From the NCBI RefSeq assembly GCF_900476375.1, contig NZ_UPPP01000062.1, positions 8,651 to 72,650 of the forward strand: 64,000 nucleotides of DNA, in the 5' to 3' direction. This DNA comes from Lucifera butyrica (GTDB lineage: Bacteria > Bacillota > Negativicutes > Sporomusales > UPPP01). The translations under genes were made by a program, and so were the position numbers. Of this stretch, positions 3,521-60,463 are shown piece after piece. The notes below the pieces were generated by a model, which saw nothing but the letters and a program-made list of their open reading frames with translations, ran no database searches and was not told the DNA's origin. The first letter of the stretch is position 1, and each line of letters opens with the position of its first letter.

Positions 3521-3697
3521 AAGCAAAACGGATGGGAACGGATGAAATTTGTTCCCATCCGTTTTTTGTTATAGTTTCACTAGCGCTCTTTCTTCACCGG
3601 ATGGCGGAAGGATTTTGTAATTAGCGTTAAGAATATTTATAAATACAGAAGTTGAAACTAAAGAAAGACGACAACGAAATTAAGGGGGCCGCATTGC

Positions 3698-6019
3698 ATG
3701 TCTAAACATCGTCGCAAAATACCGCTATTGCCGCTTCGGGGCATTTTAGTTTTTCCATATATGATCATCCATTTGGATGTGGGACGCGAAAAATCAATCA
3801 GCGCATTAGAAGAAGCAATGGTTCATGACCGTCTTATCATGCTGGCGACACAAAAGGAAGCTCAAAATGACAAGCCCGAACCGGAAGATATTTTCCCGGT
3901 CGGTACGGTCGCTGAAATCAAACAATTGTTAAAACTTCCCGGCGGAACAATCCGGGTGCTGGTGGAAGGATTACACCGGGCTTCGATTGAAGAGTATGTC
4001 AGTCAGGAGCTGTTTTATCTGGTTGAAATTAACGAATTTGATGAGCTGGAGCCCAAAACGCCGGAACTGGAGGCCCTGACGCGGACATCGATTCATCAGT
4101 TCGAGCAATGGGTGAAATTAAGCAAAAAAATTCCGCCGGAAACTCTGGTTTCGGTGGTGGTCGTGGAAGAACCCGGCCGGCTGTCGGATTTAATTGCCAG
4201 TCACTTGTCGCTCAAAATTGAAGATAAGCAGGCCCTGCTGGAAGCTGTTAACATTAAAGAGCGGCTGGAAAAATTATGCGAAATTCTTAGCCGGGAAATG
4301 GAAATTCTGGAACTGGAAAAGAAGATTAATGTCCGGGTTCGCAAGCAGATGGAAAAAACGCAAAAGGAATATTATTTGCGGGAACAACTGAAAGCCATTC
4401 AGAAAGAATTGGGCGATAAGGACGACCGGACCAGTGAAGTGGAAGAATACCGGCAGCGTCTAAGCGAACAGGAATTACCCAAAGAAGTGGCTGAAAAAAT
4501 AAATAAAGAAATTGAGCGCCTGGAAAAAATGCCGCCCATGGTGGCCGAAGGAGCGGTTATCCGTACATACCTTGACTGGCTCCTGGCATTGCCCTGGTCG
4601 CAGGAAACGCCCGACCGGCTGGATATTTCCATGGCGGAGACAATTCTGGAAGAAGATCATTACGGGCTGGAAAAGGTTAAAGAACGGATTCTGGAATATC
4701 TGTCCATACGGAAGCTGACGGAAAAAATGAAGGGCCCCATTCTTTGTCTGGTCGGACCGCCGGGAGTTGGTAAAACATCCCTCGCCCGCTCCATTGCACG
4801 GGCTATGGAACGCAAGTTTGTCCGGGTTTCCCTGGGCGGTGTGCGTGATGAAGCGGAAATTCGGGGTCACCGCCGCACTTACGTAGGCGCGCTGCCGGGA
4901 AGGATCATCCAGGGGATGCGCACTGTAGGCTCTAAAAATCCGGTTTTTCTTCTCGATGAAATTGATAAAATGAACGCTGACTTCCGGGGAGATCCGTCGT
5001 CGGCTTTGCTGGAAGTTCTCGATCCGGAACAAAATAATTCGTTCAGCGATCACTACGTGGAATTGCCTTTTGATCTTTCCCGCGTTTTGTGGGTAGTTAC
5101 GGCCAATGTAATGCATAACATTCCCCGGCCGTTGCTTGACCGCATGGAGACAATTACCATCGCCGGCTATACGGAAGAAGAAAAGGTACAGATTGCCAAA
5201 CGTTATTTAGTGCCGAAGCAGATGAAAGACCATGGTCTTTCGGAACAGCAAATTGTTTTTTCCGAAGGAACGATTCAGAAAGTAATCCGGGACTATACCC
5301 GGGAAGCCGGAGTGCGGAACCTGGAGCGGAATATTGCCAACTTATGCCGCAAAGTAGCCCGGCAAATTGTGCAAGAACGCCGGAAAAGCGTTAAAATTAC
5401 GGCGCAAAATCTGCATACTTTTTTGGGTGCGCCCAAATACCGCCATTCCCAGGCGGAAAAGCAGCACCAGGTAGGAGTTGCCACCGGCCTGGCCTGGACC
5501 GAAGTGGGCGGCGACGTGCTTGCCGTGGAAGTATCCACCATGAAAGGCAAAGGGAAACTTACCCTGACCGGCCAATTGGGAGAAGTCATGCGGGAGTCGG
5601 CGCAGGCCGGTTTCAGTTATATCCGGACCCGGGCCAAAGAGCTGAGTATTGACGAAGAATTTTATGAAAAAACGGATATCCATATTCATTTACCGGAAGG
5701 AGCGATTCCCAAAGACGGGCCGTCCGCCGGTATTACGATGGCCACGGCGGTAGCCTCCGCTTTAACCGGGAAGCCGGTACGCAGTGAGATTGCCATGACC
5801 GGTGAGATTACTTTGCGGGGCAGAGTATTGCCTGTGGGGGGAATCAAAGAAAAAGTGCTGGCCGCTCACCGGATTGGTATCAAGAAGATTATATTGCCCC
5901 AGGAAAATAAACGGGATTTGGATGAAATCCCCGGTAATGTGCGCCGCAGTATGGAATTTCTTTTAGTAGAACATATGGATGAAGTATTAAAAGCGGCATT
6001 GGTGCATGAGAATGACTGA
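3698..6019 (+). CDS. lon: ATP-dependent protease La (Lon)
   Basis: Lon N-domain, AAA+ module (GPPGVGKTS), and proteolytic domain with catalytic Ser ([18 protein letters not shown]). 773 aa. Confidence 0.95.
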
Positions 6020-6641
6020 AGAGAAGGCGGATTTCACGATTATTCAGGCCAAGTATTTGGCGTCGGCAGTCCGGCCGGATCAGTATCCGGCGGGGGATTG
6101 GCAGGAAATTTCTTTTATCGGCCGCTCCAATGTAGGCAAGTCCTCGCTCATTAACTCCCTTTGCCGGCATCATGGGTTAGCCCGCGTGAGCGGAACCCCC
6201 GGCAAGACGCAGACCATAAACTTTTATGTTTTAACTGCTAAATTAGCGGACGAAAAACGGCTGGACTTCTTGCTGGTCGACCTTCCCGGCTATGGATATG
6301 CCCGCACGGGTCAGGCCAACCGGCGCCAATGGTCGAGATTTATTGAAGAATATTTGCTCTATTCACCCCGGCTGCGTCTCATTTGCCAGTTGATTGATAT
6401 TCGGCACCATCCCATGGACAGTGATATTATGGTGCATCAGTGGTTAACGGAAAATAACCTGCCGGTTCAGATTATGGCTACCAAAGCGGATAAGCTGTCT
6501 CGCTCGCAAGTGAAAAAGCAGAGTACGGTCATCCGGGATGTTTTTTCCCAATCAAACAGCAATCCGATTGCTTATTCTTCTGTCCAGGGCACCGGCCGGG
6601 ACGAATTAGTTGACGCAATCAGGAAAGTTTTGCTAAAATGA
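6006..6641 (+). CDS. engB: ribosome biogenesis GTP-binding protein EngB/YsxC
   Basis: G1 motif [23 protein letters not shown]3 region, TKADK G4. Follows lon as in Bacillus. Confidence 0.9.
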
Positions 6642-6705
6642 TTACAATAGCGAAGGGACAGTATCCATACTGTCCCTTTCCTTGCAGTAATTAAAGGAGT
6701 AGATT

Positions 6706-7155
6706 ATGCTAAGCCTCTTCGACAAACAACTATTGAATCGAATTCAAACCGGGTTGCCCTTTGACAATAGACCCTTTGCCGTGTTAGCCGAGAAGTTGGG
6801 AACGGATGAAGCCACAGTGATTGAGCGGTTGCAATGGCTAAAGGAGCACGGATACATTCGGCGGGTCGGACCTTTTTTTGATTCGGCCAAACTTGGCTAT
6901 ACCGGCACCTTGGTGGCGGTAAAAGTAGCAGCAGAGAAAATGAAGGCGGTGGCGGAAAGTATTAACCGTTACCCTGGTGTAACGCATAATTATGAGCGGG
7001 AAGGAAGATTTAATCTTTGGTTTGCGCTGCTATCGCCGAACCAGGCGGCACAGGATAAAATTCTGCAGGAAGTGCGCTGTTTGAATGGTGTAGAACAATT
7101 GATTAGTTTACCGGCCACGAAAAAATTTAAAGTCAGTGTTCAGTTTACCCTTTGA
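6706..7155 (+). CDS. Lrp/AsnC-fold protein of the siroheme decarboxylase AhbA/NirD-L type
   Basis: 149 aa. N-terminal HTH (LLNRIQTGLPFDNRPFAVLAEKLG) and C-terminal RAM-like domain; paired with a paralog immediately downstream as in AhbA/AhbB. Confidence 0.55.
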   Translation: MLSLFDKQLLNRIQTGLPFDNRPFAVLAEKLGTDEATVIERLQWLKEHGYIRRVGPFFDSAKLGYTGTLVAVKVAAEKMKAVAESINRYPGVTHNYEREGRFNLWFALLSPNQAAQDKILQEVRCLNGVEQLISLPATKKFKVSVQFTL

Positions 7156-7170
7156 GAGGTGCAGTAAAGT

Positions 7171-7653
7171 ATGGATGAAATGGATAAAAAAATTGTTATT
7201 GCCATGCAGGACGATTTTCCTTTGTGCGCTGATCCTTACCAGCAAATCGCAGCCAAAATCGGTATCGGCGAAGAGGAACTGTTACGGCGCTTAAAACGGC
7301 AATTTGCCGAAGGAAAAATACGTAAAATGGGTGCCGTACTACAGCACCGGGAGGTCGGTTTTGCCGCCAATGCCCTCTGTGTCTGGGTAGTGCCGGAAGA
7401 ACGGCTGGAGGAGGTAGGACGAAGCATGGCCGCATGTTCTGCTGTTACGCATTGCTATTCACGCATTCCTGTGCCGGAATGGCCATACAATTTTTATGTG
7501 ATGATTCATGCCCGGACGCGTAAGGAATGCGAAGCCATGGTCGCCGAACTAAGCAGAAAGACCGGTTTGGACAACTACGATATGTTGTTTAGCACCCGGG
7601 AATGGAAAAAAACAAGTATGCGATATTTTCGGGAGGTAGGGAAAAATGCTTAG
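7171..7653 (+). CDS. Lrp/AsnC-fold protein, AhbB/NirG-H-like partner subunit
   Basis: 160 aa, with the same fold signature as the upstream gene (DDFPLCADPYQQIAAKIG...). Tandem paralogs are typical of siroheme decarboxylase. Confidence 0.55.
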   Translation: MDEMDKKIVIAMQDDFPLCADPYQQIAAKIGIGEEELLRRLKRQFAEGKIRKMGAVLQHREVGFAANALCVWVVPEERLEEVGRSMAACSAVTHCYSRIPVPEWPYNFYVMIHARTRKECEAMVAELSRKTGLDNYDMLFSTREWKKTSMRYFREVGKNA

Positions 7654-8557
7654 AAATTTTGCGGCCGTGTTGGATGCGGTACGCGGCATGCCTCCAAGGC
7701 GCGTAGCCGTGGCTGTGGCTCAGGATGATGCGGTTCTGGAAGCCATTAAAGCGGCTCAAGAGGAAAAAATAGCTGATTTTGTGCTGATTGGCGATAGGGT
7801 GAAAATTGAGAAGGCCGCAGCCGGGTTAAATATTGACTTACGGGGACTGGAAATTGTCAACGAACCGGATGACCGTCAGGCGGCCTATCAGGCGGTTGCT
7901 CTGGTATCCCGCGGACAGGCCGATGTCCTCATGAAAGGACTGATCAATACCGCCGATTTACTGCGAGCTGTTTTAGACAAGGAAATAGGGTTAAGAACCG
8001 GACGGGTTCTCAGTCATGCCGCTGTTTTTGACGTTCCCGGTTTTGACCGGCTGGTTATGGTTACGGACGGCGGGATGAATATTGTGCCGACACTGCAGCA
8101 AAAGGCCGAGATTATTCAAAACAGTGTTATGCTGGCGGCTGCACTCGGACTACGGCCGGCTAAAGTAGCCGTACTGGCTGCGGTAGAAGTCATTAATCCC
8201 GATATGCCGGCTACGCTGGAGGCGGCGGCATTGGCCAAGATGGCGGACCGGGGGCAGATAAAAGGAGCCATCGTGGATGGCCCGCTGGCTCTTGACAATG
8301 CCATTAGTCTGGAGGCGGCCAGACATAAGGGAATCAAGAGCGCCGTAGCCGGCTGCGCGGATATTTTGCTGGTGCCGGATATCGAAGCAGGCAATCTCTT
8401 AGGTAAATCGCTCGTTTATTTCGCCGGCGGTAAAATTGCCGGCCTGGTATTGGGAGCGGCCAAACCGGTTGTCGTGACATCGCGGGCCGATTCTCCCGAA
8501 GCCAAGTTAATGTCCATTGCCATGGGCGCCTTATTAGGCCGGGGCGTCGACCAATAA
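7646..8557 (+). CDS. ptb: phosphate acyltransferase (phosphate butyryltransferase / phosphotransacetylase family, Ptb-like)
   Basis: 303 aa, Pta/Ptb fold (VAVAVAQDDAVLEAIKAAQEEKIADFVLIGD...VTDGGMNIVP). Sits upstream of a branched-chain-type 2-oxoacid:ferredoxin oxidoreductase. Confidence 0.65.
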   Translation: MLRNFAAVLDAVRGMPPRRVAVAVAQDDAVLEAIKAAQEEKIADFVLIGDRVKIEKAAAGLNIDLRGLEIVNEPDDRQAAYQAVALVSRGQADVLMKGLINTADLLRAVLDKEIGLRTGRVLSHAAVFDVPGFDRLVMVTDGGMNIVPTLQQKAEIIQNSVMLAAALGLRPAKVAVLAAVEVINPDMPATLEAAALAKMADRGQIKGAIVDGPLALDNAISLEAARHKGIKSAVAGCADILLVPDIEAGNLLGKSLVYFAGGKIAGLVLGAAKPVVVTSRADSPEAKLMSIAMGALLGRGVDQ

Positions 8558-29519: not shown

Positions 29520-29595
29520 GGCCCGGTGGTGTAGTGGTTAACATGCCGCCCTGTCACGGCGGAGATCGAGGGTTCAAGTCCCTTCCGGGTCGCCA
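29520..29595 (+). tRNA. tRNA-Asp (GTC)
   Basis: Cloverleaf folded by hand: acceptor GGCCCGG/CCGGGTC, anticodon loop CTGTCAC, T-loop GTTCAAG, 3' CCA encoded. Confidence 0.85.
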
Positions 29596-29600
29596 TCGGT

Positions 29601-29675
29601 GCGGAAGTAGCTCAGTGGTAGAGCATCGCCTTGCCAAGGCGAGGGTCGCGAGTTCGAATCTCGTTTTCCGCTCCA
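29601..29675 (+). tRNA. tRNA-Gly (GCC)
   Basis: Acceptor GCGGAAG/TTTCCGC, anticodon loop TTGCCAA, T-loop TTCGAAT, CCA encoded. Confidence 0.85.
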
Positions 29676-29678
29676 AAC

Positions 29679-29754
29679 AGGGGTATAGCTCAATTGGTAG
29701 AGTAGCGGTCTCCAAAACCGTTGGTTGAGGGTTCAAGTCCTTCTGCCCCTGCCA
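29679..29754 (+). tRNA. tRNA-Trp (CCA)
   Basis: Acceptor AGGGGTA/TGCCCCT, anticodon loop CTCCAAA, T-loop GTTCAAG, CCA encoded. Confidence 0.85.
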
Positions 29755-29867
29755 GTGAAAAAACAGGGAATTCCTCAAACCGGGGAGTTTCTTTTTATTC
29801 TTTTCTAGACTATCTGGACATTTGCCAGGTAAGTTGGTATAATAATATAGTTAAGATTATTATTAAT

Positions 29868-29942
29868 GGCGACATAGCCAAGTGTTAAGGCAAAGGTCTG
29901 CAGAACCTTGATCCCCTGGTTCAAATCCGGGTGTCGCCTCCA
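29868..29942 (+). tRNA. tRNA-Cys (GCA)
   Basis: Acceptor GGCGACA/TGTCGCC, anticodon loop CTGCAGA, CCA encoded. Confidence 0.85.
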
Positions 29943-29943
29943 T

Positions 29944-30019
29944 AGGGGTATAGCTCAATTGGTAGAGTAGCGGTCTCCAAAACCGTTGGTTGAGGGTTCA
30001 AGTCCTTCTGCCCCTGCCA
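29944..30019 (+). tRNA. tRNA-Trp (CCA), second identical copy
   Basis: Identical to 29679-29754. The downstream terminator module is also duplicated. Confidence 0.85.
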
Positions 30020-37100: not shown

Positions 37101-37176
37101 GGCCCGGTGGTGTAGTGGTTAACATGCCGCCCTGTCACGGCGGAGATCGAGGGTTCAAGTCCCTTCCGGGTCGCCA
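37101..37176 (+). tRNA. tRNA-Asp (GTC)
   Basis: Identical to the copy at 29520. Confidence 0.85.
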
Positions 37177-37205
37177 TTTTACATTGAAACCTACGGCGTA
37201 CATTT

Positions 37206-37281
<76 letters not shown>

Positions 37282-37288
37282 TATATAT

Positions 37289-37363
37289 GCGGAAGTAGCT
37301 CAGTGGTAGAGCATCGCCTTGCCAAGGCGAGGGTCGCGAGTTCGAATCTCGTTTTCCGCTCCA
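37289..37363 (+). tRNA. tRNA-Gly (GCC)
   Basis: Identical to the copy at 29601. Confidence 0.85.
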
Positions 37364-37367
37364 GAAT

Positions 37368-37442
<75 letters not shown>

Positions 37443-39395: not shown

Positions 39396-39484
39396 GCCGG
39401 GGTGGCGGAACAGGCAGACGCAAGGGACTTAAAATCCCTCGGGTGGTAACACCCGTACCGGTTCGATTCCGGTTCCCGGCACCA
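39396..39484 (+). tRNA. tRNA-Leu (TAA)
   Basis: Acceptor GCCGGGG/TCCCGGC, anticodon loop CTTAAAA, long variable arm, CCA encoded. Confidence 0.8.
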
Positions 39485-40920: not shown

Positions 40921-41040
40921 GCCCTGTGCCTCGAGCCGAAAGAGCGTCAGTGGTCTTTCTTTAATATGTTGTAACAGTCGACGATGGACTATCATATTAT
41001 GTTAATGGGATACCCAAACATTTATAGGAGGTGAAGTCTG

Positions 41041-41457
41041 ATGGGATATTATAATTATGGTATGTCCAGCTGCCAGTCCATGAAATGTATGTCTTGCATG
41101 CATGCCATGAAATGTATGTCCAGTTGCCAGCCTATGTATAGTTGTGAATCGATGTCCAGCTGCCAATCTATGAAATATATGTATAGTTGTCAGTCGATGT
41201 CCAGTTGCCACTCCATGAAATGCATGTCCAGCTGCCATCCCATGTCCAGTTGCCAGTCCATGAAATGTATGTCCAGTTGCCAGCCTATGTCCAGTTGCCA
41301 GTCTATGAAATGTATGTCCAGTTGCCAGCCTATGTACAGTTGCCAGTCTATGAAATGCATGTCCAGCTGTCAGCCTATGTACAGTTGCGAATCGATGTAT
41401 AGTTGCCAGTCCATGAAATGCATGTCCAGCTGTCAATCCATGATGTATGGTCGGTAA
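41041..41457 (+). CDS. Cys/Met-rich low-complexity repeat protein (about 20 tandem hexapeptides of type S-C-Q/H/E-S/P-M-K/Y/S)
   Basis: Strong RBS (TAGGAGGTGA, 6 nt spacer). 138 aa containing 25 Cys and 27 Met. 18-27-nt DNA repeats. Followed by a strong terminator. Confidence 0.7.
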   Translation: MGYYNYGMSSCQSMKCMSCMHAMKCMSSCQPMYSCESMSSCQSMKYMYSCQSMSSCHSMKCMSSCHPMSSCQSMKCMSSCQPMSSCQSMKCMSSCQPMYSCQSMKCMSSCQPMYSCESMYSCQSMKCMSSCQSMMYGR

Positions 41458-41475
41458 TAAAACTAAATAAAACTA

Positions 41476-41522
41476 AAAATCAGCACCAGGTACTGCTGTC
41501 CCGGTGCTGATTTTCTATTTTT
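41476..41522. terminator. bidirectional rho-independent terminator
   Basis: AATCAGCACCaggtactgctgtcccGGTGCTGATT followed by TTCTATTTTT, with an A-run upstream. Confidence 0.8.
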
Positions 41523-41529
41523 ACAGTTA

Positions 41530-41595
41530 CAGAAAGTATAACTTTTCAGTAAAATACTTTCTTCCTGCTTAAAGACCTTTCAGGTCTTTCTTCTT
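41530..41595 (+). repeat. copy A (short form) of a repeated structured element. The 5' block cagaaagtataactttt and the 3' block taaaatactttc...AAAGACC-n5-GGTCTTTCTT are shared with 51161-51266
   Basis: Direct comparison of both loci. Two hairpins: GAAAGTAT..ATACTTTC and AAAGACC..GGTCTTT. Confidence 0.6.
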
Positions 41596-43402
41596 ATCTG
41601 GAGAGATGAATTTGATTGAGGGGATTTTGGGCGTAGCTTTCTTTCAGTTTCCGGTAGGCTTTTTCCGTCGGCAGGTAAGAACAATGTTCTTTATAGGGGC
41701 AGCTATTACAGTTCCAGCAATTTAACTGACCTAAATAGGAAAGGATTGTTGTCTGGTTACCAAATTCACTGATTACACCGTGAACTATATTGGGAGGATA
41801 AAAGGTGCTTAAAATATCTAAAGCTTCTTCATCATTCAATTTTTCGGTCCGGGTAGCAATATAATCTCTTACACATTTATAATAAGTCACTACACTGGGG
41901 TTAGACGGATTGTTGTTTTTGTTATTTTCTAAAAAACGGTTAAATGTTGTATAGGCTTTGGCGAAGTCGCCTTTTTGATAATGGAGTGCGGTAAGGAACA
42001 GGTCTATATTGCTATAGTACCAGGGCAGCGATTCCGGTAAAGACAGATTTAACAAATCGGTAACCGCAGCGACGGGACTATAACCGGTTGTTTCCAAAAA
42101 ACGGATCAATTCTTCCCTTTGGCCGTCGGTTAAGGACGGCAGAGAACGGAGCAGCCGGCGGATTTTATTATATTCCGCGTAGTCGGTTATGGCCTTGCGG
42201 TCGGAGATTTTCTCAATTTCACTCAGTCCCGGAACAATAACATGAAAGGCGGGAAAGCCTAAAAAGGAAACGTCCCGGATAAACGTGCTGTAGCCTTGTC
42301 TGGCCAGCAACTGGATTAAATGCGTCAACAGTTCTTTATTGCTGAAGCCGTGCACGTCTTCCAATTCCTTAAAATCATAACTGTAGTTATGACTGAAAAA
42401 GTTGGCGGGATAAAAGCCGGAGCCGTTAACGAGAATTCCCATCAGGTTTTCTGCATCCAAATCGCTGTGGTAACAAAATTCTCTTACCCCCATCATCCGG
42501 TGAATGTCCTGCCCTTGCAGCAATTCGGTAAGCGTTCGTTCGGCGGCAATTTCAAATATGGGGTGGGCACCGAATTTAACAAAATAATTCTGCGTATCTT
42601 TATTGATATAAATAACGCCAACTACGGGAAAATTTAGTCCCAGTGAGCAATCTTTCAAAATGATTTCACAGTTGCTGCTGGCTTTCAATTTAGCTATCAT
42701 GGAAGCTATGTTAGAATATTTATTAATGAACCAACCAGGGATGTCGGGAGGACATAACCGTTCATTAATAATTTTCTGGTTGGCAAATCGCTCCATAATT
42801 TCCGAAATTCCTTGAACGACGGCTTCTTCCAGGGTATTTCCCGCGCACATGCCGTTTGACATGTACATCTTGGATGCCATTTTAACCGGGATATAGGAAA
42901 TTTGATTGTTTGTCCGGTTTAGGTAAGGGAGCGCAATGAAATCGGCGGGAATCGTTTCGTAGGAAACATCCATCCAGCGTTGCAGGAGTTCTGCTTTATC
43001 TATAGCCGGATCCAGACGGTTCCACTGTTCGCGGAACCAATCCTCTTTACTGCTCAGTACCTCCTCAAAACTCATTTTCTTCTCATCGGGAGCGTAAAAA
43101 AAACCAAGATACTCCAGCGCCTCTTGCCGTAAATCCAGATTGAGCCGGAAAGTAGCCTGGTTTTGCAGGCGCTCCATTAATTCGCCGTAGGCGCTGGCCA
43201 GGGCCAGGTCGGCGGTAGCGCCTTTGCCATTTGTTGATAAACAGGTGTCAACAATTTGAACGGTAACTGAGAAAAAACCTTCTACTGAATTTTTCCAGAC
43301 TGTTTCGATGGTTAAAAGATCCAGATCCTTTAAAATGGTGCGGATCGTATGGATTGTGGTTAACGGCGGCCGGTCTTTATAGTGACTGTCGGATATTGCC
43401 AT
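41594..43402 (-). CDS. ycaO: YcaO-domain protein (E. coli YcaO-like, 602 aa) with C-terminal TPR-like region and a terminal CX2CX2CX5C cysteine cluster
   Basis: TNGKGATADLALASAYGELMERL matches the N-terminal YcaO ATP-binding/active-site block of E. coli YcaO (TNGKGATKKAALASALGEYFERL). C-terminal ...CWNCNSCPYKEHC. Confidence 0.8.
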   Translation of the reverse strand: MAISDSHYKDRPPLTTIHTIRTILKDLDLLTIETVWKNSVEGFFSVTVQIVDTCLSTNGKGATADLALASAYGELMERLQNQATFRLNLDLRQEALEYLGFFYAPDEKKMSFEEVLSSKEDWFREQWNRLDPAIDKAELLQRWMDVSYETIPADFIALPYLNRTNNQISYIPVKMASKMYMSNGMCAGNTLEEAVVQGISEIMERFANQKIINERLCPPDIPGWFINKYSNIASMIAKLKASSNCEIILKDCSLGLNFPVVGVIYINKDTQNYFVKFGAHPIFEIAAERTLTELLQGQDIHRMMGVREFCYHSDLDAENLMGILVNGSGFYPANFFSHNYSYDFKELEDVHGFSNKELLTHLIQLLARQGYSTFIRDVSFLGFPAFHVIVPGLSEIEKISDRKAITDYAEYNKIRRLLRSLPSLTDGQREELIRFLETTGYSPVAAVTDLLNLSLPESLPWYYSNIDLFLTALHYQKGDFAKAYTTFNRFLENNKNNNPSNPSVVTYYKCVRDYIATRTEKLNDEEALDILSTFYPPNIVHGVISEFGNQTTILSYLGQLNCWNCNSCPYKEHCSYLPTEKAYRKLKESYAQNPLNQIHLSR

Positions 43403-43775: not shown

Positions 43776-43975
43776 TTCGCCGCTATCGCGACTGACATAA
43801 ATAGTAATCTTCTTGATAATATATTCGCGTAAGCGAGCGGCGGTTACCGGGGCGAAAAACTAAATGCTTTGCCGGAAGGAGACTATTGTTGCTTATGACA
43901 GCAGGATTCTGGAAACAGGATACGAATAAAATTATATAGAAGAACAGGTTGCGGCAGCCGGACAGGAAGGAAAGC

Positions 43976-44494
43976 ATGGGAACGGAGATTCGGAACAATC
44001 TGAACTATTTACGGTATGCGGTATTCCATAAATGGTATGTGTTTTTAGAGGCATGGAAGCTGGGGATCGTCTGGCGGGGGCTGCTGCATGACTGGAGTAA
44101 GTTTTCCTGGCAGGAATGGAGGCCCCGGGTTGCGGCATTAGCCCGGCGTCAGCGGCAAGATATTTATACACCGGAGTTTTTTGCCCCCGGTAATGTGGAG
44201 GATGAATTGGCTTTAAGCTGGCTGCGGCACTATCACCGGAATCCGCATCATTGGCAATGGTGGATTGTTGTGCTGGATGGCGGTCAACAGAAGGTGCTGC
44301 CGATGACGGATGAATACCGCCGGGAAATGCTGGCCGATTGGCGGGCCGTATCGCGAATGCCGGACCGAATGGCAATGGTGCCCTGGTATTTGCTGAATAG
44401 GGAAAAGATAATTTTGCATCCGGAAACCCGGCAGTGGGTTGAAAAACAGTTGGGATTATCAGAAACGGGAGGAGATTGCCATGACGGCATATAA
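43976..44494 (+). CDS. hypothetical protein (aromatic/His-rich, no recognised domain), first gene of the que operon
   Basis: ORF with a Trp/His-rich block ([12 protein letters not shown]). Its 3' end overlaps queC by 14 nt, so it is co-transcribed. Confidence 0.5.
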
Positions 44495-45140
44495 AGATCA
44501 GGGCGCGCTGGTAGTATTTAGCGGTGGGCAAGACAGTACGACCTGTTTATTTTGGGCAAGGAAGCAATTCAACCGGGTGGAAGCCGTGACGTTTGATTAT
44601 AATCAGCGGCACCGGCGTGAAATTGATTGTGCCCGGGAGATTGCCCGGGAACTTTCCCTGGAGCATACCATACTCGATTTAGGGTTGTTGAACCAATTGG
44701 CGCCCAATGCGTTAACCCGCAGCGAAATTACCGTTAAGGCCGGTGAGAGCGGACAGCTTCCCAATACGTTTGTGGATGGGCGCAATTTACTGTTTCTTTC
44801 TTTTACCGCCGTGGTGGCGAAGCAGCGAAACATCCGCCATATTGTGACCGGCGTGTGTGAAACGGATTTCAGCGGCTACCCGGATTGCCGGGATGTATTT
44901 ATCAAATCGTTGAATGTTACGTTGAACCTGGCCATGGACTACCAGTTTGTCATTCATACCCCTTTAATGTGGATTAATAAAATGGAAACCTGGGCGATGG
45001 CCGACGAATTGGGAGTGCTGGATTTTGTCCGGCAAAAGACATTGACCTGTTATAACGGGATTATCGGTGACGGCTGCGGTGAGTGTCCGGCCTGCAAACT
45101 GAGAAATGCCGGATTGAAGGAGTATCTATGCCGGAAGTAA
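44481..45140 (+). CDS. queC: 7-cyano-7-deazaguanine synthase
   Basis: [14 protein letters not shown]-loop and C-terminal zinc ligands CYNG...CGECPAC. ATG behind GGGAGGAG. Confidence 0.9.
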
Positions 45141-45721
45141 AATATCCTGTTGTTCAGATTTTTACCAGCATTCAGGGGGAAGGCCTGCATATGGGACTGC
45201 CCGTCACCTTTATTCGTCTGGCCGGCTGCAACCTAAGGTGCACCTGGTGCGATACGCCTCAGGCATTTGACAGCAGTCAGGCCAGGTGGCAGACGGCAGA
45301 GGAGATTGTGGCGCAGGCGATTCCCACCCGGCTGGTTGTTATTACCGGCGGTGAACCGACCTTACACGATTTGGGCAGCCTGGTCGAAGCGCTAAAAAAG
45401 CGGCATAAATATGTCGCCATTGAAACCAATGGAACCAATGAGATTCCCGCGGCCTGGGGAATTGACTGGATCACCGCCTCTCCCAAACCGGCAAGCGGCT
45501 ATATTTTACGCTGTGTGCCCAATGAACTGAAATATGTGGTCGATGATGCATTCAACCTGGAGGTCATTGCCTGGCAAGCCGTTCCGAAAGGAAATATTCT
45601 GCTGCAGGTGGAAAGCGGCCGGCCGGAATCGGCGGCGAAAGCATACCGTCTCGTCCTGGAGCGGCCGGATTGGGAGTTGCGTCTGGGGATTCAACTGCAC
45701 AAAGTGATTGCTGTGGAATGA
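45128..45721 (+). CDS. queE: 7-carboxy-7-deazaguanine synthase (radical SAM)
   Basis: FTSIQGEG...[14 protein letters not shown] cluster motif. Confidence 0.9.
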
Positions 45722-45979: not shown

Positions 45980-47410
45980 ATGAGTATGACACCTAAAGAT
46001 GTAGTGGCGATGGCAAAAGAAAAGGGAGCTAAGCTGGTTGATTACAAATTTATCGATCTTCCTGGTATTTGGCAGCACAAAACGGTTCCGATCAGTGAAT
46101 TTGACGAAAGTGTGTTTGCTGAGGGGCATGGTTTTGACGGATCCAGTATCCGGGGCTTTCAGGGCATTGAAGAAAGTGATATGCTTCTAATTCCTGATCC
46201 GAATACGGCAATTGTTGACCCATTTATGAAAGAACCTACGTTAAGTCTAATTTGTAATGTTGTTTCTCCTGACATGGAAAACTATAGCCGGGATGCGCGC
46301 TATGTGGCACAAAAAGCGGAAGCTTACCTTAATGCTACAGGAATTGCGGATGCCAGTTATTGGGGACCGGAAGCCGAATTTTTCATTTTTGATGATGTTC
46401 GTTATGATTTGAGTCAAAATGCTGCTTATTATTCGGTAGATTCTGAAGAAGCAATTTGGAATACCGGCAAGAATGAAGGCCCCAATCTTGGTTATAAAAT
46501 TCGTAATAAAGAAGGATATCTGCCGGTTCCTCCCGCCGATGCAACCCATGATATCCGTTCCGAGATGACTTTGGTGCTGGAAAGCCTGGGAATTCCTGTT
46601 GAAGCGCATCATCATGAGGTAGCTACCGGCGGCCAGGGCGAAATTGGCATGCGCTTTGATACCTTGACCAATATGGCCGATAAAACGATGACTTTCAAGT
46701 ATGTAGTAAAAAATGTTGCCAGAAGGTATGGTAAGCTGGCAACTTTTATGCCGAAACCACTTTTTGGTGATAACGGCAGCGGTATGCACGTACATCAAAG
46801 CCTGTGGCTGGGCGGTCAGCCGTTGTTCTTTGATGAGAAAAATTATGCTCAACTCAGTCAAACGGCCTTGTACTACATAGGCGGTTTGCTAAAACATGCT
46901 TCGGCTTTGCTGGCTCTTACCAGTCCGACTACGAATTCATACAAACGACTGGTACCGGGGTATGAAGCACCGGTAAATATCGCGTTTTCAGCTCGTAACC
47001 GGAGTGCTGCTGTCCGGATTCCGATGTATTCCAAGAATCCCAAAACAAAACGGATCGAATTCCGTCCCCCCGATGCTTCTTCTAACCCGTATTTGGCATT
47101 AGCCGCCATGTTGATGGCCGGGATCGATGGGATTAAGAACAAAATTGACCCGGTTGCGGAAGGCTTCGGACCGATGCAGGTCAACATTTATGAACTGCCG
47201 CCGGAAGAAAAGGCTAAAGTCAAGAGCGTACCCGGTTCTTTGGAAGGAGCCTTAAAGGCGTTGGAAGAGGATCATGCTTTCTTATTGGAAGGCGGGGTAT
47301 TTACCAAGGATCTTCTGGAGACCTGGATCAGCTATAAATATGCTAATGAAGTGGATTCAGTCCGGCTGCGTCCGCATCCAATGGAATTCAAGCTGTATTT
47401 CGATATCTAA
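45980..47410 (+). CDS. glnA: glutamine synthetase type I
   Basis: [32 protein letters not shown] and [12 protein letters not shown] motifs. No adenylylation-site context. Confidence 0.95.
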
Positions 47411-47562: not shown

Positions 47563-49473
47563 ATGCTTAAAGATTTGCTGTACGTGATTCCCACAGGAAA
47601 ATATAGCAAACAAGAACTGGTTGATTTATTGAGAAAGCATCCCGAAATTAAATTCGTCTCTTTGGTGGGAATTGACCTCGCCGGTAATGATACGGACGAA
47701 AAAGTTCCTATATCATTGTTTCTGAAAGACGTTGATGATTTCTTTAGTGGCAGCGCGGTGCAGACCGACGGCTCATCCGTTGTGTTAACCGGTGTTGCCA
47801 CATTAAATAATGCCAAAGTCGATATGCTGGCCGACCCTGGTGTGAATTGGTTTGTTGATTACAATTTCGAGCATATTGATGAAGAAACCAAAAAACCGAT
47901 TGGTACCTTGCGTATTCCGGCTTTCCTTGTCCATAACGGCGTACGGGTTGACTCCCGGTCGATCATGGCGCAATCGCTGGAATATATTAAAGGGGAACTG
48001 CTTAATTTATTCAAAAAGCATCCTCAGGTAGCCGGTTTGGAGCACATCGGCGCCGATGAAGTGGAAGATATTATTTTTACTTCAGCGACGGAACTGGAAT
48101 TTTGGGTGAAGACCCCGGCGGAAAAAGCCCGGGTGGAAGAACTGTCGGCAACCCAGGTAATGCAGGAAAACTATTGGGCCCGTACTCGCGGTGAGGCACG
48201 CACGGCCATGGAACAAGCCGTCATGATGCTGGAGCAGTATGGTTTGCATCCGGAAATGGGCCACAAAGAGGTCGGCGGGGTAAAAGCCAGGATCAGCGAG
48301 TCCGGTGGACTGACCCATGTAATGGAACAGATGGAAATTGACTGGCGTTTTGCCAGCGGGGTACAGACGGCGGACAATGAATTACAGGCCCGGATCCTTG
48401 TTAAGGAAGTGTTCCGCGCCAATGGACTGGAAGTAACCTTTCAGGCCAAGCCGATCATTGGTGTTGCCGGCAATGGGGAACATACCCATGTTGGCATGGC
48501 TGCCAAATTGAAATCGGGTAAAATTGTGAACCTGTTTGCGCCGAAAGATATGAAAGCCGATTTCCTGAGTGCGGTCGGTTATGGCTCTATTATGGGGCTG
48601 CTCAAGCACTATGAAGTGGTAAATCCCTTTATTTCTTCCACGAATGATTCTTTGAACCGTTTAAAACCCGGTTTCGAAGCGCCGGTATGCATCGTTACTT
48701 CTCTGGGCCACAATCCGGAAGTTCCTTCCCGTAACCGGACCATCCTGGCAGGACTTGTCCGTGATATTAATAACCCGCTGGCAACCCGCTTTGAAGTTCG
48801 CTCGCCGAATCCGTTCACGAACACCTATATTGCCTTGACGACAATTTATCTTTCCATGCTTGACGGCATTAAAGCGGCTGTTGCTTCCGGCAAGACGACG
48901 AAGGAACTGGAGAAGGAATTGTCGAAAGAGCCGGGTGTTCCCAGTTTCTATCTCGAAACCGACCGGGCCTACCGCAGTGAACATGATGTGTTTGAAGACT
49001 ACACCGCGGAAGAACGGAACCGTATGTTCAGCAAACCGCCTGCTACAGTGTGGGAAAATATGCAGGGGCTGGCCAAATATCCGCAGAAAGTGGAAGCGAT
49101 CAAAGCCGGCAATGTTTTCTCGCAGGAACTGATTGATGCCTTTGTTGCCGGAGCCTTGTTGCGCTGGAAGATAGAACTGTTGAATCGTATTATTCCCGAA
49201 AATGCGGATATCGTAAAAGCTTGTTCCTGTCTGCATACCCCGGAAGCCGGCAGTGACCTGGACGAAAAAAATTGGCAGGCTATTATGAATCTCCGGGTTT
49301 ACCTGGCGAAAGATTCTACGGCGAAGAAGAGCCTGTTCACCCGGATCGGGGAAGCGGTTAACAGTGGCGATTATAATACTGCTTCCGCTTTGCAAGTGGA
49401 AATGAGTGATAAGCTTGAAGAATTAAAAAGTGCTTATGTGCAATATAAAAGAAACATGATTCATGGTTGTTAA
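47563..49473 (+). CDS. glutamine synthetase family protein, type III-like (636 aa)
   Basis: N-terminal beta-grasp with QTDGSS. Catalytic domain motifs NGEHTHVGMA, NRLKPGFEAPV, SLGHNPEVPSRNRTI parallel the GS active-site blocks. Long C-terminal extension. Confidence 0.6.
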   Translation: MLKDLLYVIPTGKYSKQELVDLLRKHPEIKFVSLVGIDLAGNDTDEKVPISLFLKDVDDFFSGSAVQTDGSSVVLTGVATLNNAKVDMLADPGVNWFVDYNFEHIDEETKKPIGTLRIPAFLVHNGVRVDSRSIMAQSLEYIKGELLNLFKKHPQVAGLEHIGADEVEDIIFTSATELEFWVKTPAEKARVEELSATQVMQENYWARTRGEARTAMEQAVMMLEQYGLHPEMGHKEVGGVKARISESGGLTHVMEQMEIDWRFASGVQTADNELQARILVKEVFRANGLEVTFQAKPIIGVAGNGEHTHVGMAAKLKSGKIVNLFAPKDMKADFLSAVGYGSIMGLLKHYEVVNPFISSTNDSLNRLKPGFEAPVCIVTSLGHNPEVPSRNRTILAGLVRDINNPLATRFEVRSPNPFTNTYIALTTIYLSMLDGIKAAVASGKTTKELEKELSKEPGVPSFYLETDRAYRSEHDVFEDYTAEERNRMFSKPPATVWENMQGLAKYPQKVEAIKAGNVFSQELIDAFVAGALLRWKIELLNRIIPENADIVKACSCLHTPEAGSDLDEKNWQAIMNLRVYLAKDSTAKKSLFTRIGEAVNSGDYNTASALQVEMSDKLEELKSAYVQYKRNMIHGC

Positions 49474-50048: not shown

Positions 50049-50123
50049 TGCGGAAGTAGCTCAGCGGTAGACCCTCGCCTTGCCAAGGCGAGGGTCGCGA
50101 GTTCGAATCTTGCTGTCCGCTCC
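50049..50123 (+). tRNA. tRNA-Gly (GCC), divergent copy with one mismatch each in the D-stem and acceptor stem
   Basis: Same anticodon arm and T-loop as the other Gly tRNAs, but D-stem GCTC/GACC and acceptor pair A6-G67 are mismatched. Confidence 0.6.
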
Positions 50124-56439: not shown

Positions 56440-56580
56440 ATAGTAAAATTAAAATGCCGAATCCATATAGGTACGGGGGAACCGCTAGAAAAACAGGGGT
56501 AAATCCGCATTGCGGAGGGGTTGTTTCTCTTTTCTCTCTTTCGCCCTCACCCGACAGCTAACCTCGGAGGCACTCAAAAG
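56440..56580 (+). promoter_or_regulatory. c-di-AMP riboswitch (ydaO/kimA class)
   Basis: GCCGAAUCC...GGUACGGGGGAACC ... GGGGUAAAUCCGC...GGAGGGG ... CCCGACAGCUAACCUCGGAGGC, the pseudo-two-fold ydaO signature, directly upstream of a cell-wall 3D-domain gene (typical regulon member). Confidence 0.6.
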
Positions 56581-56593
56581 AGAGGTGATACAA

Positions 56594-60386: not shown

Positions 60387-60463
60387 GGGGTTATAGCTCA
60401 GTTGGTTAGAGCGCTTCGTTGACATCGAAGAGGCCAGCGGTTCGAGTCCGTTTAACCCCACCA
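60387..60463 (+). tRNA. tRNA-Val (GAC)
   Basis: Acceptor GGGGTTA/TAACCCC, anticodon loop TTGACAT, T-loop TTCGAGT, CCA encoded. Confidence 0.85.

Follow-up and report, generated by a model that had tools for sequence, protein, structure and literature searches.

A Met/Cys triplet-repeat gene kept beside a long-type ycaO gene in spore-forming Bacillota: a candidate spore-coat protein and enzyme pair overlooked by gene finders

Long YcaO proteins of the type found in Escherichia coli (PDB 4Q84) consist of an N-terminal region, an ATP-binding YcaO domain and a helical C-terminal region. The E. coli protein has reportedly been linked to RimO-dependent methylthiolation of ribosomal protein S12, and the function of this long branch is said to have been unclear since. 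Other YcaO enzymes belong to the azoline-forming systems of thiazole/oxazole-modified microcins (TOMMs), such as McbA/McbBCD, SagA/SagBCD and BalhA/BalhCD, in which a YcaO gene stands beside the gene for a small precursor. Among spore proteins, the tandem-repeat coat protein gene cotG of Bacillus subtilis adjoins cotH, the gene of the kinase that modifies CotG, and CotY and CotZ of B. subtilis and CdeC and CdeM of Clostridioides difficile are Cys-rich outer-layer proteins that are made late in the mother cell and are thought to be cross-linked. Here we analyse a stretch of 64,000 nucleotides from Lucifera butyrica (assembly GCF_900476375.1, contig NZ_UPPP01000062.1, positions 8,651 to 72,650 of the forward strand; hereafter the window), in which a gene for a 138-amino-acid Met/Cys repeat protein (41041–41457, + strand) converges with a gene for a 602-amino-acid long-type YcaO (41594–43402, − strand). 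The repeat gene and ycaO, found together in about 50 spore-forming Bacillota, appear to encode a previously unrecognized pair of spore-coat protein and enzyme that has escaped gene finders.

The open reading frame (ORF) at 41041–41457 is a true protein-coding gene missed by annotation, and its product is missing from public protein sets. An earlier reading of the window, made without database searches (the sequence-only reading), had proposed this 138-residue ORF with a near-consensus ribosome-binding site and its own terminator, and these features hold. A strong Shine–Dalgarno sequence, AGGAGGTG, occupies 41026–41033 (+), 7 nt 5′ of the ATG, and an intrinsic terminator lies at 41468–41523, where the + strand forms a hairpin of −22.1 kcal/mol (z = −6.45). 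The − strand has the same stem and also a U-run, so the terminator can work in both directions and is common to both convergent genes. The protein opens with MGYYNYG and ends in MMYGR; between the two lie 16 hexapeptides of the form M[SY]SC[QEH][SP], with 8 tripeptides MK[CY] scattered among them, and a single MSCMHA unit. With 39 Ser, 29 Met and 24 Cys, it consists to 38% of Met and Cys. The earlier reading had thus recognized the richness in Cys and Met and the repeats themselves, but its counts of 25 Cys, 27 Met and about 20 hexapeptides were inexact.

We anchored a search for similar neighbourhoods on YcaO, taking one genome per species, and obtained 80 loci. Where YcaO is at least 44% identical to that of Lucifera, a triplet-repeat ORF adjoins the gene in 50 of 58 loci, weaker and truncated cases included; among more distant YcaO loci, only 3 of 25 have one. 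The pairs span Negativicutes and Clostridia. A periodicity scan covered all stop-free segments over about 800 kb and recorded those with Met or Cys at every third residue in at least 10 of 12 consecutive triplets, leaving out other-frame shadows of the same repeats; every such ORF adjoins ycaO save one, about 3 kb off (L070). Most of the extracted repeat ORFs (42 of 46) are convergent with ycaO and downstream of it, the two stop codons being a median of 95.5 nt apart. When the flanks of 82 loci were clustered by all-against-all BLAST, the sole other neighbour that was kept was a gene for a YlbF-like protein, which lies upstream of ycaO in 15 loci, Lucifera among them. In a Negativicutes metagenome-assembled genome (MAG) and in Sporomusa aerivorans, the convergent Cys/Met repeat ORF past the ycaO stop is all that matches the Lucifera neighbourhood.

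Because the repeat ORF stays beside ycaO while other neighbours change, the two genes, at times with the YlbF-like gene, are shown to be passed on together as one unit in both Negativicutes and Clostridia. The sequence-only reading had doubted that the convergent genes are linked and had suggested comparing the neighbourhood over related genomes. That comparison reverses the doubt: YcaO co-occurs with the repeat ORF, and conservation of the pair in two classes without other shared synteny, apart from the YlbF-like gene, supports the link.

The unit of the repeat family is a triplet, [small]-[Met/Cys]-[polar], and its period is therefore three residues rather than the six suggested by the hexapeptides of the Lucifera protein. 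The central position is 45% Met and 55% Cys in Negativicutes and 98% Met in Clostridia. The residue before it is Ser, Cys or Thr in 82% of triplets in Negativicutes and Ser, Pro, Gly, Ala or Cys in 83% in Clostridia, and the residue after it is polar (Lys, Asp, Gln, His or Asn). Members are 60–218 amino acids long, Met and Cys make up 26–43% of their residues, and the repeat copy number differs widely among close relatives. At the N terminus, M-x-x-Y or MYY is common and leads into an acidic stretch; acidic tails also occur in several Clostridium proteins, and a GAGGTG-type Shine–Dalgarno sequence precedes nearly all orthologues. Clostridial orthologues are nearly pure (Mxx)n with 0–2 Cys (none in L032 and L038), and some also have very little Ser and Thr: 3 residues in the 159 amino acids of L025 and 3–8 across L025, L038 and L056. 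In two of these loci, from Clostridium uliginosum (L038, 3294–3806) and Clostridium gasigenes (L056, 3237–3884), the repeat gene is upstream of ycaO on the same strand and encodes near-perfect (G-M-Q/K/D/N)n; in form this is a G-X-Y repeat like that of collagen, with Met in the X position. No other members come close to (G-M-x)n. The Lucifera protein, with only 3 Gly, does not have Gly at every third residue as collagen-like (GXY)n proteins such as BclA do.

The conservation of this rule also bears on whether the repeats encode a protein at all. The DNA of the Lucifera gene has periods of 45, 18 and 63 nt with matches of 88–95%, and repeats of such a kind hold several frames open, by which they probably confuse gene callers. 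The region could then be a non-coding tandem repeat that is open by chance, as the skipping of the region by gene callers and its several open frames might suggest. One of the open frames, a 144-residue, His/Thr/Ala-rich ORF antisense to the repeat gene (41002–41436, −), was rejected as a gene; it has no Shine–Dalgarno sequence and overlaps the promoter of the + strand gene, and the pattern of variation by codon position speaks for the + frame. Within the 16 hexapeptide units, the entropy is 0.24 at the first codon position, 0.15 at the second and 0.89 at the third, and differences from the consensus codons are synonymous in 19 cases and non-synonymous in 14. This bias of the variation to the third position, together with the missing Shine–Dalgarno sequence of the minus-strand ORF, identifies the + frame as coding. 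Across the family, the strong Shine–Dalgarno sequence, ATG and terminator recur in almost every species, the promoter is conserved, and Met (ATG) and Cys (TGY) swap within one register, such that the rule is kept in the protein though not in the DNA. We therefore give the non-coding explanation practically no credence.

The family is invisible to database searches. A homologue search with the Lucifera repeat protein gave no matches at E ≤ 1e-3, and Pfam and NCBIfam searches gave none at E ≤ 0.1, which agrees with the earlier statement that no described family has this architecture. The protein has no family hidden Markov model match to bacterial metallothioneins or Cu storage proteins (SmtA/BmtA, MymT and Csp) and, with its true period of three residues, no Pfam match to the left-handed β-helix hexapeptide family PF00132 ([LIV]-G-x2-[STAV]-x). 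Searched exhaustively with phmmer, a set of 1.84 billion representative proteins yielded only unrelated low-complexity or eukaryotic ones, and a profile built from 20 family members retrieved no true members; its sole informative match was a CotJC protein with an (Mxx)n tail, to which we return below. The exact products of the window gene and nine orthologues were all absent (0 of 10) from a collection of 15 billion proteins. Their absence is explained by gene callers that skip or mis-frame the ORFs and by short-read assemblies that break there: the tandem repeats cause fast copy-number evolution and broken short-read assemblies and gene calls. Our literature searches on YcaO with methionine-rich proteins, spore coat, YlbF or sporulation, and on methionine-rich clostridial spore coat, found no earlier description.

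Individual loci show how the repeats escape notice. The repeat gene of the Negativicutes MAG (L002, 7894–8385) is uncalled in the public annotation, and in S. aerivorans (L003, 7916–8287) a wrong-frame 89-residue ORF (7980–8249, −) is annotated in its place. The Lucifera ycaO is also present on a short-read contig (L001) that stops 43 nt past that gene, and in Clostridium sp. UBA6640 (L053) the repeat ORF, of (Mxx)n/(GMQ)n type and located upstream of ycaO, is interrupted by a run of Ns at about 3570–3760, a further sign that the repeats defeat assembly.

The partner enzyme, identical to L. butyrica LUCI_1522, is a long YcaO in which the YcaO domain (residues 58–394; PF02624, E = 4.9e-54, 184.3 bits versus a cut-off of 25.7) is followed by a helical C-terminal region. 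Residues 9–534 are 30% identical to E. coli YcaO, with the acidic and Arg nucleotide-binding motifs kept. These motifs (S-x3-E-x2-E-R, QGxSExxER and ERTxTE) are invariant in the clade and common to the E. coli protein, with which S70, E74, E77, R78, Q197, G198, E201, E204, R205, E288, R289, T290 and E293, all invariant in 18 homologues, align; in the E. coli structure, their roles are reported to be nucleotide and Mg binding. As the sequence-only reading had observed, the Lucifera protein adds to this E. coli-type architecture a compact CX2CX2CX5C motif near its C terminus, CWNCNSCPYKEHC (residues 562–574; codons at 41681–41719, −). Its four Cys (C562, C565, C568 and C574) are invariant in the 18 aligned homologues and the motif occurs in most of the wider clade, whereas the C terminus of E. 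coli YcaO has no Cys cluster. Neither protein has an E1-like or TfuA partner. The two also differ in setting: the E. coli gene has focA and ycaP as neighbours, and the Lucifera gene has a sporulation-type promoter and the conserved repeat gene. A gene for a 108-residue YlbF/YmcA-like protein (PF06133; 43437–43763, −) precedes ycaO by 34 nt and has the same orientation, and because of this arrangement the two probably form one operon.

A Cys-rich repetitive product next to a YcaO had been taken by the sequence-only reading as the textbook signature of a thiazol(in)e or thioamide precursor, that is, of a ribosomally synthesized and post-translationally modified peptide (RiPP) in which YcaO would convert Cys to thiazol(in)es or thioamides and from which a secreted or diffusible product would arise. 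The conserved adjacency and the intact ATP-binding motifs of YcaO fit this scheme, as does the resemblance to TOMM systems of a YcaO gene beside a small repetitive ORF that, in Negativicutes, is Cys-rich, abounds in S-C dipeptides and has small residues before Cys that suit cyclodehydration. The orthologues do not fit: the clostridial (Mxx)n proteins have almost no Cys, and some have nearly no Ser or Thr; many lack cyclizable residues. Unlike the TOMM precursors, the repeat proteins show no division into leader and core within their 60–218 residues of repeats; the product is protein-sized and apparently under sporulation control, and a promoter of that kind is not what a classical RiPP would lead one to expect. 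The flanks of the 82 loci contain no conserved E1-like, Ocin-ThiF, TfuA, dehydrogenase, protease or exporter gene; a ThiF gene was seen at one locus only (L002), 1.8 kb away. A domain search found no E1-like/Ocin-ThiF domain in the Lucifera YcaO itself, which also lacks a C-terminal PxPxP, and the protein scores far below the thresholds of the models for TOMM/SagD (TIGR03604, 62.5 bits versus 219) and for McrA-glycine thioamidation (TIGR03266, 59.2 versus 365). The classical azoline-RiPP model thus fails as the conserved function, given the Cys-, Ser- and Thr-poor orthologues and the missing E1-like or TfuA partner, and we regard a RiPP precursor as unlikely.

The upstream regions point instead to sporulation. 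A sigma-K-type promoter precedes the Lucifera repeat gene (40974–41001, +), with AC at −35 (40974–40975), a 17-nt spacer and the −10 element CATATTATG (40993–41001), which ends 39 nt before the ATG. Repeat genes of both classes share an upstream element, gtAACA-N16/17-CATAttaTG or CATAnnnTA, that ends 33–51 nt before the start codon. The pattern AC-N16/17-CATAnnnT[AG] is present in 31 of 46 repeat-gene upstream regions, compared with 1.3% of control 100-nt windows and a mean of 0.3 of 46 in shuffles, and in the 64-kb window the repeat gene alone carries it in an intergenic region upstream of an ORF with a strong Shine–Dalgarno sequence. The sigma-K consensus of C. difficile has AC at −35 and a CATATAAT-like −10 (PMC3789822). 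The repeat-gene element fits this consensus in its −35 AC, its 16–17-nt spacer, its −10 CATAnnnTA and its distance to the gene.

A looser form of the element is found at the other half of the module. In Lucifera, AC-N17-AATATATT (43818–43844, −), a relaxed match to a mother-cell-type promoter, lies upstream of the ylbF-like gene and ycaO. Of 53 repeat-bearing loci, 28 have a relaxed match (AC-N16/17-[CA]ATAnnnT) before ycaO or ylbF, compared with 8% of control windows and none of the 22 most distant YcaO homologues. A GAATATA element upstream of many ycaO operons is best read as the AC-N17-AATAnnnT variant of this relaxed form. Sigma-E, -G, -F and -H were considered for GAATATA and rejected, because partner hexamers were not at the expected spacing.

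The CotJC match fits a role of the repeats in the coat. In a Clostridium sp. cotJA-cotJB-cotJC operon (L206, 9547–10705), the orthologue of CotJC, a Mn catalase, ends in an (Mxx)n tail, SMNPMHEMNQMNQMNSMNSMSQMNLMHEMKSMKPMHEMKSMKPMNK. The clostridial cotJA at this locus served as a positive control for the promoter analysis and has AC-N17-CATAacaTA, of the sigma-K type, upstream of it; no YcaO is encoded in this locus of 19 kb. L. butyrica has been reported to form spores. From the sigma-K-type promoters, the spore-forming host and the tailed CotJC, we infer that the repeat gene is expressed late, in the mother cell, and serves the coat or an outer spore layer. A sulfur-rich structural protein of the spore or coat had been one of the alternatives offered by the sequence-only reading, and the evidence now favours it. 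On balance we lean towards the view that the mother cell makes the repeat protein late, as a protein of the spore coat, and that it is the partner and probably the substrate of the convergent YcaO. Most likely, it would then be a structural component of the coat or of an outer spore layer.

By analogy, the nearest functional counterpart of this module would be cotG/cotH of B. subtilis. In both cases an enzyme gene is kept by a fast-evolving, low-complexity repeat gene, of which composition and position are conserved and sequence is not, and late mother-cell expression is predicted for the Lucifera module as well. The differences are that the enzyme is a YcaO and not the atypical kinase CotH, the repeats are Met/Cys triplets and not rich in Lys, Ser and Arg, the genes are convergent and not divergent, and the hosts are Negativicutes and Clostridia and not Bacilli; a coat location and an enzyme–substrate relation are for Lucifera only presumed. 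The repeat protein would share with CotY/CotZ and CdeC/CdeM its richness in sulfur and its predicted late mother-cell timing. By Pfam and NCBIfam searches it has no sequence relationship to them, and they lack the strict register of three residues, the variants dominated by Met and the partner enzyme.

A different reading of the Met/Cys register is that of a cytoplasmic, metallothionein-like sponge for Cu(I), Ag or Hg that binds through MxxM or CxxxC and is independent of YcaO. Cu(I)-binding Mets motifs are known from Ctr1, CopA/PcoA and CueO, and Met or Cys at every third residue recalls those of Ctr1, CopA and PcoA; the host, moreover, originates from a site of acid rock drainage that is rich in metals. 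Met at i and i+3 is indeed common to the repeat protein, the Mets motifs and the (GGM)n tails at the C terminus of GroEL, but the latter two are short segments of larger proteins that serve other functions, whereas the Lucifera protein is all repeat and has a YcaO partner and a sporulation-type promoter. That promoter is not metal-inducible in type, the flanks retain neither a metal-responsive regulator nor an efflux gene in common, the family is spread over dozens of taxa that live in ordinary anoxic habitats, the host is reported to be copper-sensitive, and the pairing with YcaO would be left without explanation. A soft-metal buffer, also among the earlier suggestions, therefore seems improbable as the function. 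A coat protein could still bind metal, in which respect this explanation partly overlaps with the one we favour, and to that extent the suggestion survives.

The third earlier suggestion, sulfur storage, would make the protein a reserve of Met and Cys that is laid down in sporulation and broken down at germination. Its Met and Cys content and its apparent production late in sporulation are what such a reserve would show. However, products of the sigma-K-driven mother cell end up outside the spore core, where, from what is known of small acid-soluble spore proteins, reserves are not normally mobilized, and the three-residue register, the small residue before Met or Cys and the enzyme partner would all remain unexplained. 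We consider this very improbable.

It could also be that the two genes are neighbours by coincidence, YcaO being a housekeeping protein like the RimO/S12 accessory of E. coli and the repeat gene an unrelated coat or storage protein gene kept beside it. The closest solved or curated relative of the Lucifera enzyme is E. coli YcaO (30% over 537 residues), its best NCBIfam match is the E. coli-type model NF040716 (YcaO_for_S12), the convergent genes each have their own signals, and many distant members of the clade have YcaO without a repeat gene. Against this stand the score for NF040716, which at 311.2 bits is far below the cut-off of 700; the persistence of the pair across Negativicutes and Clostridia while all other neighbours change; the mother-cell-type promoter elements at both genes in many species; and the fact that the Tepidibacter group has lost its Cys4 motif together with the neighbouring repeat gene. 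We hold coincidence to be a poor explanation, although not a negligible one. At the Tepidibacter and other Peptostreptococcaceae loci concerned (L037, L039, L040 and L046), the YlbF-like gene and a promoter-like element, AC-N16-AATATAAT, are kept upstream of YcaO, and the missing Cys4 motif and Met/Cys repeat ORF look like a correlated loss.

Several observations weigh against a sigma-K-controlled coat protein modified by YcaO. The sigma-K assignment comes from matching to a consensus; sigma-K and sigma-A promoters are alike in geometry, and the same bases allow a weak sigma-A reading (GTAACA-N18-TATTAT, 9 of 12). No pattern match was found for 15 of the 46 repeat genes and for about half of the ycaO operons. 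The repeat gene and ycaO are convergent and hence not co-transcribed. A reciprocal search, from the repeat side, speaks neither for nor against the pairing: matches of the pattern (ATGN6)7ATG to metagenome contigs (at least 120 loci) were swamped by ATG microsatellites, eukaryotic low-complexity sequence and the GGM tails of GroEL, and no YcaO was among the matches listed. An AlphaFold2 (AF2) single-sequence model of the repeat protein hints at a β-solenoid-like fold, with a predicted local distance difference test score of 76–83 for residues ~50–110 and a low mean of 59.7; AF2 over-predicts solenoids for repeats, and a Foldseek search with the model gave no match at E < 0.5 and no significant PDB match. 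Lastly, we know of no YcaO that modifies Met-only sequences.

If the repeat protein is nevertheless a coat protein served by YcaO, the module could work as follows. Sigma-K in the mother cell would transcribe the repeat gene, and in many species apparently the ycaO operon too, during coat assembly; transcription of the repeat gene would start about 7 nt 3′ of CATATTAT. YcaO, as an ATP-dependent enzyme that activates backbone amides, would then act on the repeat protein within the mother cell, a step that we propose more cautiously from the conserved pairing. The resulting backbone modification or cross-linking might harden the layer or make it reactive to metals or oxidants. As conserved chemistry, azoline formation is ruled out by the many orthologues without Cys, Ser or Thr; a TfuA-independent thioamidation or an undescribed reaction would be more compatible with the repeat sequences. 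The Cys4 module, with Zn or an Fe–S cluster, and the YlbF-like protein are candidate accessories of YcaO.

We also advance, as a speculative extension with the odds against it, that the orphan long E. coli-type YcaOs of spore-forming Bacillota are coat enzymes that processively activate backbone amides along the repeat protein. Poly-thioamide, or some other new backbone chemistry independent of Cys, Ser and Thr, might in this way yield a sulfur-dense polymer resistant to proteases, oxidants or metals, and not a diffusible RiPP, perhaps with the aid of the Cys4 module and a YlbF-like adaptor.

Should the pairing reflect enzyme and substrate, the repeat proteins would be the first natural substrate class for the long E. 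coli-type branch of YcaO, and action on Met-only repeats would be chemistry beyond the azoline, thioamide and amidine reactions known for Cys, Ser and Thr. A conserved, protein-sized partner in dozens of culturable anaerobes makes the function of long-type YcaOs directly testable. The family suggests that spore coats have a component of a new type, in which about one-third of the residues contain sulfur and which may be enzyme-modified; such a component has implications for how the spores of Clostridia and Negativicutes withstand oxidants, metals and proteases. The family also exposes a systematic blind spot, in that neighbourhood mining for RiPPs or coat proteins could not find it, since gene callers pass over the repeats or read them in the wrong frame and assemblies from short reads break at them.

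Some distant homologues have a different neighbourhood. Six YcaOs with 31–37% identity to that of Lucifera (L065, L067, L071, L073, L074 and L080) have the Cys4 motif and no repeat gene; directly 3′ of ycaO (~5800–7900), these loci encode a 630–685-residue protein that resembles a B12-binding radical-SAM (S-adenosylmethionine) enzyme. In three of them (L067, L071 and L073), the sequence upstream of ycaO resembles the C terminus of a second YcaO, which suggests tandem paralogues. These loci may represent a different, RiPP-like type of cluster.

Divergent from the ylbF-like/ycaO operon of Lucifera, the window contains a DUF5662 gene (PF18907) followed by queC and queE, for 7-cyano-7-deazaguanine synthesis (43949–45721); this arrangement is not kept at other loci. 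Farther along lie two adjacent genes of the glutamine synthetase family, which encode proteins of 476 (45980–47410) and 636 (47563–49473) amino acids, and a c-di-AMP riboswitch (RF00379, 79 bits) at 56445–56587. The window also contains 12 tRNA genes, some of them in two groups of four to five, at 29520–30016, 37101–37439, 39396–39481, 50050–50121 and 60387–60460.

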